From Escherichia coli (GTDB lineage Bacteria > Pseudomonadota > Gammaproteobacteria > Enterobacterales > Enterobacteriaceae), in assembly GCF_016903815.1 (NCBI RefSeq), contig NZ_CP069973.1: a DNA stretch of 64,000 bases; one strand, written 5' to 3'. This document shows positions 1 through 61,082 of this stretch, piece after piece. The stretch's first letter is position 1. Every line of letters starts with the position of its first letter. The notes under the pieces were generated by a model that did no database searches, was not told the origin of the DNA, and saw only the letters and a list, made by a program, of their open reading frames with translations. A program made the position numbers and the translations under genes.

Positions 1-510
1 AGACCTGCTGATGGCAAGGTCGACACGCAATCTGCCGGTCCGCCATCAAAAAGCGCGGTGAACGCCTGTGCGGATAACGGAACATCGCGCTCATTTTGCA
101 GTAGCACTTGCGTTAACCGCTGAGCGATGACGTCTTTATGCGCTTCGGCTTGCTCAAGTGTTAATCCGGTCGTCAGCAGCCGCATGCCACAAGAAATATC
201 GGTGCCGATGGCGGCGGGAATGACTAAATCCGGCGTTGAGGCCACCACCGCGCCAACGGGGACGCCATTGCCGGGATGAAAATCTGGCGTCGCGCACGTC
301 TGGCGCACATAACCTGGGTGGTCTGGTAGCTTCGCTTCTGCAAAATCAAGCAGTTGTGTTACTGCTTTTTCTTCCAGCGGCAGTTCGTCCGGCAGCAGTA
401 CGCGGGCACTGGCACCTGATGGACGAGATAATGAAACAATATTGTTGGCGCGGGAAAGTTGGATCCCTTTGCGCAGAAAGGCTTTATCAAGCCTTGAAAG
501 ATGATGCATA
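1..510 (-). CDS. RtcB-family RNA ligase-like protein, N-terminal part (gene continues beyond window start)
   Basis: Manual minus-strand translation from ATG at 510-508 gives MHHLSRLDKAFLRKG...TPDFHPGNGVPVGAVVA...IPAAIGTDISCGMRLL, matching the conserved RtcB metal-binding motifs (PDxHxGxG ... IPAAVGxDIxCGM). Not in the ORF track as a minus-strand ORF because it is truncated by the window edge. Confidence 0.55.
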
Positions 511-760
511 ACGCTGTCCTGAAATATAGACGTTAAACAACCCCCTGTATTGCGAGGGTAATTTTGTCTTTCCGGTCAGCAGCCAGCAAAAGGGAAAGAA
601 AACGCGCGTAGTGTATGTGGCGATAGCAAGTTTTACAAGTGGTAAATCTGGCTTATTGTTAAAGAGGAATTATCTTTTGTGAAGTCTTTTAAGGCCATGA
701 CTCATTCAATTTAACCGGACATAGATAATATATAACATAGGGTATATAAATTTATCATTG

Positions 761-892
761 TATACTTGTCATAATTCAAGTTGCATGTGCTGCATCGATG
801 TTCGCTCACTCAGGTCACTTACTTATGTAAGCTTCTGGAAATTCATTATTTGTTCCCTTCCTGCAACTTGACTTATTTAGAGTATATTCATG
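761..892. repeat. ERIC/IRU intergenic repeat, copy 1
   Basis: Contains caagttgcatgtgctgc...ttcgctcac...agtcacttacttatgtaagct, the reverse complement of the ERIC core (AAGCTTACATAAGTAAGTGACTGGGGTGAGCG); about 85-90% identical by eye to the second copy at 46690-46816. Confidence 0.8.
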
Positions 893-1098
893 TATATGAA
901 TAATATTCTTGCAATAATAGCTTTAAAGTATTGCATGCGGATAACTGAGGTGAAATTCCTGTTTTAGGATTATTGTCACTTTATTTTCCTGGTTAGACAT
1001 ATAGCTGACTGGTTTGTTTATTTGAATTATGATATTCATTAGTGCTACTGTTTTTTATAAAATAATTTTTGAATTGTTATTTTTTCACGGACGGAATT

Positions 1099-2004
1099 AT
1101 GCGAGGAAAAATACCTAAAACGGAGCTGCTGGTGACTTTTGAGGTCGTCGCACGTTATGAAAGTTATACCAGAGCGGCAGAGGAGTTAGCGTTAACCCAA
1201 AGTGCAGTATTCAGACAAGTAAGTGCGCTGGAGGAATTTTTACATACTCCGTTATTTTCACACTCTAAAAAACGCATTTTTCTTAATGATGCAGGGAAGT
1301 ATTACCTGGGGATAGTAAAAGAAACATTAAATAAGCTGGAACGCGATACCAATACCATTATGACCTGGCAGCCTACGGTTCAGGTTATTGAACTTGCCGT
1401 GAATCCTACGTTTAGTACCCACTGGTTAATCCCAAATTTACATGAATTCACAAAGTTACATCCCGATATTATTGTTAATATTCACTCTTTAGCTAATAAC
1501 GGCGATTTTCTTAATCGGGAGTACGATGCTGTCATTATGCGCGAAAATTTTTGCGCGCCCTGGGCGGAAGTAGAATATCTCTTTGATGAGGAGATTTTGC
1601 CGGTATGCAGCGGCAGTTTGCTTGCAATGTCCGATCAAAAACTGTCAGTGGCAGAACTGCTTACAGAGTTACCACTTCTGCATCAAAGTACCCGTATTAC
1701 TGGCTGGGAAGAGTGGTTTGCCTTATCTGGCGTTAGCAGTCCGCTGGTCAACAACGGACCACGTTTCGATTTGCTTTCAATGCTGATTGCCGCCGTGCGC
1801 TCTAATCTCGGCGTGGCGCTGTTACCACGGTTCGCTATTCAACATGATTTGGATAGTGGCGATATGGTGATTCCCTGTGATGTGCCTATTCGTACCGGTA
1901 ATCGTTTTATTATGACGTGGCAGGAAGAGAAGTCTGACTCACCGCACTTGCAGCAATTTCGTGAATGGTTGCTGGCGAAATCGGTTGTACCGCAGGAGAT
2001 GTAA
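1099..2004 (+). CDS. LysR-type transcriptional regulator (likely regulator of the adjacent glutamate-fermentation operon)
   Basis: ORF 1069-2004; N-terminal HTH signature (TFEVVARYESYTRAAEELALTQSAVFRQVSALE) places the likely start at ATG 1099 (MRGKIPK). C-terminal LysR substrate-binding domain length (about 300 aa). Confidence 0.8.
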   Translation: MRGKIPKTELLVTFEVVARYESYTRAAEELALTQSAVFRQVSALEEFLHTPLFSHSKKRIFLNDAGKYYLGIVKETLNKLERDTNTIMTWQPTVQVIELAVNPTFSTHWLIPNLHEFTKLHPDIIVNIHSLANNGDFLNREYDAVIMRENFCAPWAEVEYLFDEEILPVCSGSLLAMSDQKLSVAELLTELPLLHQSTRITGWEEWFALSGVSSPLVNNGPRFDLLSMLIAAVRSNLGVALLPRFAIQHDLDSGDMVIPCDVPIRTGNRFIMTWQEEKSDSPHLQQFREWLLAKSVVPQEM

Positions 2005-24009: not shown

Positions 24010-24085
24010 GGGTCGTTAGCTCAGTTGGTAGAGCAGTTGACTTTTAATCAATTGGTCGCAGGTTCGAATCCTGCACGACCCACCA
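24010..24085 (+). tRNA. lysT: tRNA-Lys (anticodon UUU)
   Basis: GGGTCGTTAGCTCAGTTGGTAGAGCAGTTGACTTTTAATCAATTGGTCGCAGGTTCGAATCCTGCACGACCCACCA, 76 nt with encoded CCA. Confidence 0.97.
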
Positions 24086-24220
24086 ATCGCTAAGGTGGAA
24101 GCGGTAGTAAAACGTGAAGGATAACGTTGCGTCAGCAACGGCCCGAAGGGCGAGACGAAGTCGAGTCATCCTGCACGACCCACCACTAACCTAGTTAGTT
24201 GTAGTATCCAGCGTAGTATC

Positions 24221-24296
24221 GGGTGATTAGCTCAGCTGGGAGAGCACCTCCCTTACAAGGAGGGGGTCGGCGGTTCGATCCCGTCATCACCCACCA
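24221..24296 (+). tRNA. valT: tRNA-Val (anticodon UAC)
   Basis: GGGTGATTAGCTCAGCTGGGAGAGCACCTCCCTTACAAGGAGGGGGTCGGCGGTTCGATCCCGTCATCACCCACCA. Confidence 0.97.
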
Positions 24297-24298
24297 CC

Positions 24299-24374
24299 GG
24301 GTCGTTAGCTCAGTTGGTAGAGCAGTTGACTTTTAATCAATTGGTCGCAGGTTCGAATCCTGCACGACCCACCA
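24299..24374 (+). tRNA. lysW: tRNA-Lys (UUU)
   Basis: Identical to the tRNA-Lys at 24010; 2 nt after the preceding tRNA-Val. Confidence 0.97.
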
Positions 24375-24425
24375 CTAATTACGGTGGGTTCGGTGGAAGT
24401 AGTTTGTAGTATCCAGCGCAGTATC

Positions 24426-24501
24426 GGGTGATTAGCTCAGCTGGGAGAGCACCTCCCTTACAAGGAGGGGGTCGGCGGTTCGATCCCGTCATCACCCACC
24501 A
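24426..24501 (+). tRNA. valZ: tRNA-Val (UAC)
   Basis: Identical to the tRNA-Val at 24221. Confidence 0.97.
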
Positions 24502-24504
24502 CTC

Positions 24505-24580
24505 GGGTCGTTAGCTCAGTTGGTAGAGCAGTTGACTTTTAATCAATTGGTCGCAGGTTCGAATCCTGCACGACCCACCA
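24505..24580 (+). tRNA. lysY: tRNA-Lys (UUU)
   Basis: Identical tRNA-Lys sequence. Confidence 0.97.
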
Positions 24581-24726
24581 ATTTTAACATCAAACTCAGA
24601 TGTTAAGCGTGAAGGATAACGTTGCGCCGGCAACGGCCCGTAGGGCGAGCGAAGCGAGTCATCCTGCACGACCTACCAATTTTAAAGATTGGTTCCGAGT
24701 AGAAATCTTTCAGGTAACACCCGTAT

Positions 24727-24802
24727 GGGTCGTTAGCTCAGTTGGTAGAGCAGTTGACTTTTAATCAATTGGTCGCAGGTTCGAATCCTGCACGACCCAC
24801 CA
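24727..24802 (+). tRNA. lysZ: tRNA-Lys (UUU)
   Basis: Identical tRNA-Lys sequence. Confidence 0.97.
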
Positions 24803-24934
24803 ATTTAAAGGTGGTTACTGGTAGAGAACGTGAAGGATAACGTTGCGTTAGCAACGGCCCGAAGGGCGAGACGAAGTCGAGTCATCTTGCACGACCCACC
24901 ATCCTGAATGATTAAAGCAGCATAATCCCGCAAG

Positions 24935-25010
24935 GGGTCGTTAGCTCAGTTGGTAGAGCAGTTGACTTTTAATCAATTGGTCGCAGGTTCGAATCCTGCA
25001 CGACCCACCA
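24935..25010 (+). tRNA. lysQ: tRNA-Lys (UUU)
   Basis: Identical tRNA-Lys sequence; last tRNA of the operon. Confidence 0.97.
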
Positions 25011-25014
25011 ATGT

Positions 25015-25042
25015 AAAAAAGCGCCCTAAAGGCGCTTTTTTG
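25015..25042 (+). terminator. Rho-independent terminator of the lysT tRNA operon
   Basis: aaaaaagcgccctaaaggcgcttttttg directly after lysQ; an exact second copy lies at 25161-25187. Confidence 0.85.
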
Positions 25043-25353
25043 CTATCTGCGATACTCAAAGATTCGAACCTGCAGCAGGTTTGAGTTGAGCGCAGCGAAA
25101 CAACGGAGCCGCTCGCGGCGACGGCCCGAAGGGCGAGCGAAGCGAGTCATCCTGCACGACCCACCAATGTAAAAAAGCGCCCTAAAGGCGCTTTTTTGCT
25201 ATCAGGCATCTCTCAATTTCAATTCTTAACCCTGATGACATACTCCGCGCTTGCTGCGTAAACAACTCTACGTCGGAGGAATAAGACGCAAAGTGTGGCA
25301 TTCGTCATCTCATACGTAATTCGAGTGACTTTTCCCCACCATTCGACTATCTT

Positions 25354-59939: not shown

Positions 59940-60092
59940 CATTTACGCGCTAGTATCGGCTTAACCACTAAACACTCTAGCCTCTGCACCTGGGTCAACT
60001 GATACGGTGCTTTGGCCGTGACAATGCTCGTAAAGATTGCCACCAGGGCGAAGGAAGAAATGACTTCGCCTCCCGTATCTGGAAAGGTGTAC
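59940..60092 (+). ncRNA. Molybdenum cofactor (Moco) riboswitch in the moaA 5' leader
   Basis: About 150-nt structured leader directly upstream of the moaA start with the conserved ...gccuccc... segment adjacent to the RBS; position matches the described moaABCDE leader. Boundaries approximate. Confidence 0.6.
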
Positions 60093-61082
60093 ATGGCTTC
60101 ACAACTGACTGATGCATTTGCGCGTAAGTTTTACTACTTGCGCCTGTCGATTACTGATGTGTGTAACTTTCGTTGCACCTACTGCCTGCCGGATGGCTAC
60201 AAACCGAGCGGCGTCACCAATAAAGGCTTTCTTACCGTCGATGAAATTCGCCGGGTTACGCGCGCCTTTGCCAGTCTGGGCACCGAAAAAGTGCGCCTGA
60301 CAGGCGGTGAGCCGTCTTTACGCCGCGACTTTACCGATATCATCGCCGCTGTGCGGGAAAACGACGCTATCCGCCAGATTGCGGTCACCACCAATGGTTA
60401 CCGTCTGGAACGCGATGTGGCGAACTGGCGCGATGCGGGACTTACTGGCATCAACGTCAGCGTTGATAGCCTTGACGCTCGCCAGTTTCATGCCATTACC
60501 GGGCAGGATAAATTCAACCAGGTCATGGCAGGGATCGATGCTGCATTTGAGGCCGGTTTTGAGAAGGTCAAAGTCAATACCGTGCTGATGCGTGATGTTA
60601 ATCATCATCAGCTCGACACCTTTCTGAACTGGATCCAGCATCGCCCTATCCAGCTGCGTTTCATCGAATTGATGGAAACGGGCGAGGGCAGCGAGCTCTT
60701 CCGTAAGCATCACATCTCTGGTCAGGTTCTGCGTGACGAGCTACTGCGTCGCGGCTGGATCCACCAATTACGTCAACGCAGCGACGGTCCCGCGCAAGTC
60801 TTTTGTCATCCGGATTACGCCGGAGAGATTGGCCTTATCATGCCGTATGAAAAAGACTTCTGCGCCACTTGCAACCGCCTGCGCGTTTCCTCCATTGGTA
60901 AACTCCATCTCTGCCTGTTTGGTGAAGGCGGCGTTAACCTGCGCGATCTGCTGGAAGACGATACCCAGCAACAGGCGCTGGAAGCGCGTATTTCAGCGGC
61001 GCTGCGGGAGAAGAAACAGACCCATTTCCTGCACCAAAACAACACCGGTATTACGCAAAACTTATCGTACATTGGCGGCTAA
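60093..61082 (+). CDS. moaA: GTP 3',8-cyclase (radical SAM)
   Basis: [31 protein letters not shown]...; ORF track extends 27 codons upstream (60012), across the riboswitch. Confidence 0.97.

Follow-up and report, generated by a model that had tools for sequence, protein, structure and literature searches.

A stand-alone, long-form RtcB-family gene of Escherichia coli preceded by a predicted structured RNA leader

Introduction

The stretch of DNA analysed here, referred to as the window, comprises 64,000 nucleotides of Escherichia coli DNA (NCBI RefSeq assembly GCF_016903815.1, contig NZ_CP069973.1). Its left edge cuts through a gene of the RtcB family, which is read on the minus strand. The original prediction, a model-generated note made from the letters of the window, took this gene for a paralogue of rtcB that may belong to a dedicated RNA-repair or ribosome-rescue module. 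The locus hence raises three questions: which kind of RtcB the gene encodes, whether it has partner genes, and how it is controlled. The explanation that we favour, and that we hold as a whole to be probably correct, is an orphan RNA ligase under a new translational leader. The protein appears to be a true member of an uncharacterised, archaeal-like long-form RtcB subfamily, and the leader has the properties of a well-supported structured RNA.

The gene at the window edge

The ATG start codon occupies window positions 509-507, and the frame stays open past the window start. Positions 1..509 of the minus strand contain the first 169 codons (36%) of a 465-aa RtcB-family gene, as judged from the translation, the Pfam match, and the identity to WP_001522602.1; the remaining 296 codons lie beyond the window start. 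The open reading frame (ORF) had been proposed to begin at 510. The ORF exists, but the frame read from 510 encounters stop codons and the start is at 509. A Shine-Dalgarno sequence, AGGA, is located 7 nt 5' of the ATG, and the multiple alignment places the start codon at the same position throughout the clade. The translated fragment carries PDFHPG (D76 and H78) and GTDISCGM (D104 and C107), the first two metal-site motifs of RtcB, in agreement with the active-site motifs reported before.

Many complete E. coli chromosomes match positions 1-1100 of the window with 100% identity. One of them is that of strain 7/2 (NZ_CP023820.1), in which the whole coding sequence (CDS) is 1398 bp long and encodes the 465-aa protein WP_001522602.1, annotated as "RtcB family protein"; the first 509 bases of the window are identical to this CDS. 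Judged from the 100%-identical genomes, in which the 465-aa CDS is neither truncated nor frameshifted, the gene of the window should be intact as well.

Family, active site, and fold of the protein

The 465-aa protein matches the Pfam family RtcB (PF01139) over its full length with an E-value of 4e-95 and a score of 319.9 bits against a cut-off of 27; residues 63-465 cover positions 7-426 of the 426-position profile. Its identity to the RtcB of strain K-12 is only 30%. The metal ligands D104, C107, H224, H255, and H342 are present, as is the nucleophile H394 within SCSHGAGR, and these six residues align with D75, C78, H168, H185, H281, and H337 of E. coli RtcB, respectively. Twelve residues (D76, H78, D104, C107, N223, H224, H255, R259, H342, H394, R398, and R402) are invariant among 37 clade members and K-12 RtcB. 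Hence, all residues known as catalytic in RtcB are found in the protein. An AlphaFold2 model built on the clade alignment has a mean predicted local distance difference test (pLDDT) score of 91.8 and a predicted template modelling (pTM) score of 0.92. When searched with Foldseek, it matches human and archaeal RtcB structures (8odo, 1uc2, and 4dwq) with an E-value of 1e-31 and template modelling (TM) scores of 0.80-0.82. From the conserved residues and the fold, the protein is most likely an active GTP/Mn2+-dependent ligase using a His394-GMP intermediate, and it would join RNA ends with a 3'-phosphate or a 2',3'-cyclic phosphate to 5'-OH ends.

NCBIfam places the protein in no named equivalog. 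It scores 203.6 bits with PRK09588 (cut-off 407) and 167.9 bits with TIGR03073, the family of PrfH-partner RtcB (cut-off 271.8), and clade members from Pseudomonas and Burkholderia likewise fall below both cut-offs. Together with the 30% identity, these scores bear out the view that the gene is not an ordinary rtcB orthologue.

The N-terminus differs from what had been expected. It had been proposed to extend roughly 70 residues beyond that of E. coli RtcB; the actual value is about 22-28 residues. Residue 43 of the query aligns with residue 20 of K-12 RtcB. In the multiple alignment, 22 residues are missing from the K-12 N-terminus, and internal segments make up the remainder of the 57-aa difference. 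A figure of about 67 aa does occur at this locus, as the gap between 465 aa and the 398 aa annotated for alleles with an ATT start codon (see below). The N-terminus of the 465-aa protein aligns with those of archaeal and Thermus RtcB; the alignment with the Pyrococcus horikoshii and Thermus thermophilus proteins (481-487 aa) extends from about residue 40 to the C-terminus.

A conserved leader precedes the gene

Directly 5' of the start codon, and mostly outside the interval 1-510 to which the original prediction was confined, lies a feature that it overlooked and that is conserved together with the gene. It is a predicted structured 5' leader of the rtcB-family mRNA at 507..606 on the minus strand, recognized by a covariance-model hit, covariation, and conservation. 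In the upstream-region alignment, conservation is higher in the approximately 100 nt preceding the ATG than within the CDS, and a homologous leader is recognizable in Pseudomonas and betaproteobacteria. The leader sample consists of the best 80 loci of the 288 species with a relative. The heptamer GCTGCTG is invariant in 78 of these 80 loci; it precedes the start codon by about 70 nt in a short form of the leader and by 105-135 nt in a long form.

From 5' to 3', the order of elements is a sigma-70-type -10 box, the tract X, the heptamer, the tract Y, the hairpin P2, the tract X', the ribosome-binding region, and the AUG. In the window, all of them lie on the minus strand. The predicted promoter spans 610..638 and consists, by consensus match only, of a -35 box TTGTAA (638-633), a 17-bp spacer, and a -10 box TACACT (615-610). 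The transcript is predicted to start near 603-606, just before the 5' pyrimidine tract, which reaches up to 599. A TANNNT -10 box with a -35 box at the same place (16-18 bp) is found in 57 of 77 distinct leaders, and the promoter keeps its position relative to the leader in the E. coli alleles and in locus L008. X (UCUUUCC, 593..599) resembles an anti-Shine-Dalgarno sequence and would be the 5' strand of helix P1, as indicated by partial-transcript folds, a swap test, and pair counts. The heptamer GCUGCUG (577..583) would either lie in the loop of P1 or form the 5' strand of helix H1. Y (GGAAAGA, 567..573) is a Shine-Dalgarno-like purine tract that, from folds and compensatory changes, would pair with X in P1 or with X' in helix H2. 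P2 (CCCUC...GGGGG, 541..558) is a hairpin of variable sequence forming the predicted tip of the long helix, its strands changing on both sides. Folds and covariation assign GUCUAUAUUUC (531-521) as X', the 3' strand of H2, and CAGGACAGC (521-513), which includes the AGGA Shine-Dalgarno sequence, as the ribosome-binding region and 3' strand of H1. The 3' strands of H2 and H1 together occupy 513..531.

A covariance model, R1, was built from 14 betaproteobacterial leaders and iterated once to give R2. R1 did not find the E. coli leader; R2 does, at window positions 507-596 on the minus strand with 38 bits and an E-value of 1e-7, and this is its sole match in the 64-kb window. In 517 kb of sequence, R2 identifies 78 leaders, each ending at the start codon of the RtcB gene, and off-target matches appear only at E-values of 0.3 or higher. 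R2 detects nothing at the canonical K-12 rtcB locus, nor does it detect leaders of relatives with 40-45% protein identity. A like layout is seen upstream of these relatives by eye only, one of them having a perfect 10-bp pairing between GCUGCUGACC and GGUCAGCAGC. The 9-mer CAGGACAGC also occurs in the 5' untranslated region of canonical K-12 rtcB, just 3' of its sigma-54 promoter; given that R2 finds no leader there, this occurrence is probably a coincidence.

A search of window positions 1-1300, and of the leader in six other loci, against Rfam 15 (4227 families) gave no match at E <= 1. In seven more related loci, no Rfam family reached its gathering score on the leader. An IRES_Bip match inside a coding region at one of the loci was considered spurious. 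In Variovorax, a tandem glycine riboswitch lies on the opposite strand about 1.4 kb downstream of the orthologue and is unrelated to the leader. The leader of the betaproteobacterium Snodgrassella communis is of the Gilliamella type, and its protein is 57% identical to the query, compared with 55-58% for Gilliamella, suggesting that the gene and its leader moved horizontally together among bee-gut bacteria.

Covariation supports an RNA structure

A plain MAFFT alignment of the leaders misaligned the helices, and alignments made with the covariance model were used instead. The covariation alignment has 80 rows, 69 of which are distinct, and was compared with 500 shuffles. The paired cells amount to 83.6% versus 72.1% in shuffled alignments, the pairs changed on both sides to 16 of 21 versus 11.1, the cells with compensatory changes to 162 versus 53.5, and the covariation score to 0.316 versus 0.161; in each case none of the 500 shuffles reached the observed value. 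When partner columns were slid as a control, pairing was 39-51% and the scores 0.06-0.09. The alignment from the first iteration gives the same picture. Compensatory changes are found in 9 of 9 pairs of H2 and in all four modelled pairs of P2. H1 is 87.5% paired, mainly with alternation between G-C and G-U. As its 5' strand is invariant, the support for H1 comes from conservation, G-C/G-U tolerance, and the swap test instead of classic compensatory pairs.

The swap test is alignment-free and compares cognate with non-cognate strands across 33 lineages, the register being re-optimised for every pairing. Cognate strands pair more stably in P1 (-9.4 versus -8.0 kcal/mol, p = 2e-4), H2 (-14.7 versus -10.7 kcal/mol, p < 5e-5), and H1 (-12.5 versus -10.9 kcal/mol, p < 5e-5), and two negative-control pairings are not significant. 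In a mini-alignment of P1, with the register fitted per sequence, pairing is 86.9% versus 62.5% in shuffles.

These data bear on whether the block acts as RNA at all. It could be a DNA operator read by a transcription factor that recognizes GCTGCTG, with no RNA structure involved. Such a site would account for a strictly invariant GCTGCTG facing a variable proposed RNA partner, and in many species the heptamer is followed by CAG, which creates the palindrome CTGCAG. The block, however, is positioned downstream of the conserved -10 box, and H2 and P2 change in sequence yet stay complementary, with double changes in 13 of 13 pairs. The ribosome-binding-site complement also tracks lineage-specific flanks of the loop (GAUGCUG/CAGCAUC, CAAGGCU/AGCCUUG, and GUGCUGC/GCGGCAC), and the neighbourhoods of these taxa share no single DNA-binding regulator. 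We consider an operator very unlikely.

An ORF within the leader was inspected as well. The E. coli leader contains an 18-codon ORF starting with UUG, which was rejected: its frame is not conserved, GCUGCUG and the AUG being 74 nt apart in E. coli but 73 nt apart in Burkholderia, and the changes in P2 are compensatory.

Two alternative folds of the leader

Minimum free energy folds in about 40 species converge on a structure made of H1, H2, and P2, in which X is single-stranded. H1 is formed by GCUGCUG and the ribosome-binding region as far as the start codon, and H2 by Y and X'. The 5' partial transcripts are predicted to fold differently in nearly all species, X pairing with Y to form P1 and GCUGCUG being placed in its loop. 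The two states were computed by forcing P1 or by forbidding pairing of X. On average, the H1/H2 state is the more stable one by 7.9 +/- 3.6 kcal/mol, with the E. coli leader being nearly isoenergetic. Of the last 17 nt, 40% are unpaired when H1 and H2 form versus 60% in the P1 state.

The mutual exclusion of P1 and H2 has the topology of a classic antiterminator and terminator, and would fit a transcription attenuator in which H2 and P2 followed by a U-run terminate transcription and P1 prevents it. Burkholderia and Comamonas leaders have such a run, with 5-7 U in the 9 nt after the H2/P2 hairpin (-25 to -28 kcal/mol). Across 67 leaders, however, the 9 nt after the last G-C pair contain a mean of 3.15 U, the leaders of E. 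coli, Pseudomonas, Janthinobacterium, and Gilliamella have only 0-3 U, and much of the U-richness is explained by pairing with Y. A terminator scan of the minus strand between window positions 400 and 1200 was empty; a promoter scan of the same region gave only weak sigma-70 matches. Moreover, H1 lies directly against the start codon in all cases, a position that speaks for translational control. Attenuation is hence unlikely in our assessment.

With translation as the preferred level of control, the leader may be described as a two-state switch that is off by default. About 100 nt of leader would be transcribed from the sigma-70-type promoter, and the partner of the gene would act in cis. In the favoured fold, GCUGCUG would pair with the Shine-Dalgarno and start-codon region (H1) and Y with the downstream X' (H2) beneath the variable hairpin P2, and translation initiation would therefore be blocked. 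In the alternative fold, pairing of X with Y would form P1, display GCUGCUG in the loop, and disrupt H2 and H1. The switch would turn on when a signal favours P1 or titrates GCUGCUG or Y, the signal being plausibly linked to RNA damage. As GCUGCUG is strictly invariant while its partner at the ribosome-binding site varies, an additional trans-acting partner is suggested; speculative candidates are the CAGCAGC of 16S rRNA, a protein, or a nuclease.

A more specific form of this switch would make the leader an RNA-damage sensor that replaces RtcR: the default fold hides the ribosome-binding site, and the ligase is turned on once this fold is opened, be it by broken cellular RNA or by a ribotoxin that attacks the leader. 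By a first route, broken RNA would act in trans, for example when 3'-end fragments of 16S rRNA bearing the anti-Shine-Dalgarno sequence pair with Y, or when fragments exposing the universal 16S CAGCAGC pair with GCUGCUG. By a second route, a ribotoxin would cut the leader and RtcB would re-seal it, giving a self-resetting "fuse" with a logic like that of IRE1/XBP1-RtcB. The IRE1/XBP1 cleavage loops have the form CNGCNGN, and CUGCUGC/A fits this pattern. We regard the sensor as quite improbable.

The gene has no conserved partner

The original prediction placed the partner genes outside the window. Extension beyond window position 1, with strain 7/2 as the reference, shows only the rest of the gene followed by convergent mngB. 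On the other side, a 589-bp spacer with 33.6% GC separates the gene from a divergent LysR gene at window positions 1099-2004, the LysR regulator from which it had been said to diverge. The canonical rtcBA locus is far away, and the neighbours here are mngB and LysR; the statement that the two loci differ therefore holds.

No neighbouring gene is common to nine unrelated genomic contexts. Orthologues with 60-86% identity in P. aeruginosa, Burkholderia, Ralstonia, Variovorax, Chitinimonas, and two other enterobacteria have entirely different neighbours, and none of rtcA, rtcR, prfH, Ro (TROVE), archease, and nucleotidyltransferase genes is adjacent in these nine independent contexts. The canonical rtcBA/RtcR layout is not found at this locus: there is no rtcA, no divergent rtcR, and no sigma-54 promoter. 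A scan for the latter (TGGCAC-N5-TTGCW with up to two mismatches) gave none in 510-1098, and 44 matches against 44 expected in the whole window. The RtcB2-PrfH module is not found either, there being no adjacent prfH and the TIGR03073 and PRK09588 scores being below the cut-offs. As to an Rsr (Ro)/Y-RNA/RtcB operon, the nine contexts contain no TROVE gene and the Rfam searches gave no Y RNA.

In Ralstonia pickettii, a 1338-aa protein with a reverse-transcriptase domain and several unannotated genes lie upstream of the orthologue; they are not conserved elsewhere and may represent a defence island.

Within E. coli, we found three arrangements: mngRAB-rtcB-LysR (as in this window), sucD-rtcB-hut operon-LysR, and sucD-remnant-LysR. 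Some Escherichia that lack mngRAB, such as E. coli EC17GD31, have the hut (histidine utilisation) operon as an insertion separating rtcB from LysR. The boundaries of the mngRAB block are exact and coincide with the region downstream of sucD and the rtcB stop codon. LysR persists in strains with only an rtcB remnant, and in others the hut operon stands between the two genes, which therefore form no functional pair.

The module proposed at the outset would comprise PrfH-like, Ro/Y-RNA, or nucleotidyltransferase genes just outside the window. Other bacterial RtcB paralogues are indeed organised in this way, such as RtcB2-PrfH (PMC9304027, PMC9223846), and a decayed rtcB2-prfH remnant is located elsewhere in the same strain. 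The full locus, however, offers only the convergent mngB beyond the gene, the nine contexts no partner family, the two NCBIfam profiles scores far under their cut-offs, and Rfam neither a Y RNA nor any other match. The gene is stand-alone, a multi-gene module with partners beyond the window is not supported, and we consider such a module extremely unlikely.

Distribution and selection

Relatives were identified in at least 288 species when about 100,000 genomes, one per species, were scanned. The hosts include P. aeruginosa, Burkholderia, Pectobacterium, Xenorhabdus, and bee-gut symbionts. The subfamily appears to be widespread in Beta- and Gammaproteobacteria, would always be monocistronic, and seems to have no conserved protein partner.

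Among 5426 complete E. coli genomes, the full gene is present in 289 (~5%), and only a 39-bp remnant of its 3' end in another 401 (~7%). In strain 1190, the one remnant genome inspected (of the sucD-remnant-LysR arrangement), a 57-bp piece also survives. Canonical rtcB is present in 4850 genomes (89%). With a chimeric query, about 292 genomes hold both genes and essentially none holds the RtcB-family gene alone, in line with its being a paralogue additional to canonical rtcB. In strain 7/2, rtcB2-prfH is a truncated and frameshifted pseudogene remnant between yafP and pepD, as in K-12, and the RtcB-family gene is therefore the second intact RtcB of that strain. The RefSeq note on the RtcB fragment of strain 7/2 mentions drug-inducible mexXY expression, which refers to the ArmZ-type RtcB relative of Pseudomonas.

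The loss of the gene from so many genomes raises the possibility of a decaying, functionless relic in E. coli, the upstream block then reflecting mere recent common ancestry. The remnants in the 401 genomes fit this view, as does an allele lineage of 189 member sequences in which the start codon has changed from ATG to ATT (for example GCA_035791095.1), and the upstream intergenic region is AT-rich. The ratio of nonsynonymous to synonymous substitution rates (dN/dS), on the other hand, is 0.13-0.18 at a dS of 0.13-0.15 among E. coli alleles and 0.07-0.08 against the 86%-identical enterobacterial homologue, and the gene is therefore under purifying selection. The ATT-start alleles are annotated as 398 aa from an internal GTG; they are otherwise intact and have a dN/dS of 0.13. 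The intact catalytic residues, and a leader with compensatory changes across classes of Proteobacteria, beyond Escherichia, also speak against a relic, which we judge quite unlikely. The frequent loss and the ATT start do imply that the gene is dispensable in E. coli.

Other features of the window

In E. coli, the gene would be the leftmost one of a variable segment between sucD/mngB and cydA. Between mngB and cydA, window positions 1099-~14505 form a segment that is variable and that K-12 lacks. It encodes LysR, cobO, a class I fumarate hydratase, a dicarboxylate symporter, DUF4387/AtuA, methylaspartate ammonia-lyase, glutamate mutase (glmS/E/L), and two hypothetical genes, and constitutes a methylaspartate (mesaconate) glutamate-fermentation island. 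Homology to K-12 resumes at ~14505 with 85% identity. The last ~215 bp of mngB show 78% identity between strain 7/2 and K-12, far under the usual core-gene level, which hints that the mngB allele beside the junction with the island is divergent or recombined. By coordinates carried over from the annotation of strain 7/2, the remainder of the window contains a Lys/Val tRNA cluster followed by a copy of the RtT small RNA (~24010-25166), and a molybdenum-cofactor riboswitch upstream of moaA (~59961-60105).

Discussion

The explanation put forward here, an orphan ligase with a translational leader, joins a conserved protein to a conserved RNA structure. Several points weigh against it. The transcript start, the expression, the fold, and the activity are all predictions from sequence. 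H1, the helix central to the mechanism, has an invariant 5' strand; pairing alone does not explain the strict invariance of GCUGCUG, and several species have no recognizable Shine-Dalgarno sequence. The alignments were fitted to the model structure, the P1 counts depend on the register fitted per sequence, kinship among the sequences inflates the shuffle statistics, and the E-values are rough. Finally, the gene is often lost, as in the 401 remnant-only genomes, or carries an ATT start codon.

There appears to be no study of any member of the subfamily, which occurs in at least 288 species. A widespread RNA leader absent from Rfam, and not a protein activator, seems to be the basis of its control. 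If the leader does respond to RNA damage, it would be a simple and genetically tractable readout of how bacteria detect broken RNA without RtcR, and a new class of cis-regulatory RNA whose on and off states are clearly defined. Should it merely act as a constitutive brake on translation, the RtcB subfamily and the leader motif would both still be new and useful as annotation.

As regards its architecture, the leader is comparable to leaders that sequester the ribosome-binding site and to riboswitch platforms. In these as well, one segment has two alternative partners and one fold hides the Shine-Dalgarno sequence and the start codon. The alternative helices resemble an expression platform. The leader has no obvious ligand pocket, and its conserved unpaired nucleotides are essentially those of GCUGCUG, few other unpaired positions being conserved. 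The full texts searched link no RNA motif to rtcB, and the motif-discovery papers among them do not mention rtcB.

The protein is closest in form to the long-form RtcB of archaea, Thermus, and metazoa (PH1602, TTHA1785, and human RTCB). It aligns with them end to end, including the N-terminal strands, and the TM scores of the predicted fold are 0.74-0.82. It differs from them in having only 21-27% identity over the structural alignments and no archease or tRNA-ligase-complex partners nearby. No tRNA introns are known in hosts of the subfamily.

With canonical E. coli RtcB, the protein shares the Pfam family and the set of catalytic residues, and presumably the ligation chemistry. It is 57 aa longer, with archaeal-type N-terminal and internal segments, and its gene is found in ~5% of genomes versus 89% for canonical rtcB. 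The canonical rtcBA operon is controlled by RtcR and sigma-54; rtcA, rtcR, and a sigma-54 promoter are missing at the present locus, which has a structured leader of which R2 finds nothing at the canonical one. The phage-induced rtcB of P. aeruginosa (PMC4933390) belongs to the canonical operon and not to the present clade. RtcB2-PrfH of E. coli ATCC 25922 (PMC9304027, PMC9223846, PMC13166195) is likewise an accessory RtcB paralogue restricted to some strains. It differs in its adjacent, translationally coupled prfH, and the protein described here is ~100 aa longer. The full texts searched describe only RtcB1 (rtcBA) and RtcB2-PrfH as RtcB systems of E. coli. As far as searchable papers tell, the gene would represent a third type of RtcB in E. 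coli, beside rtcBA and rtcB2-prfH.

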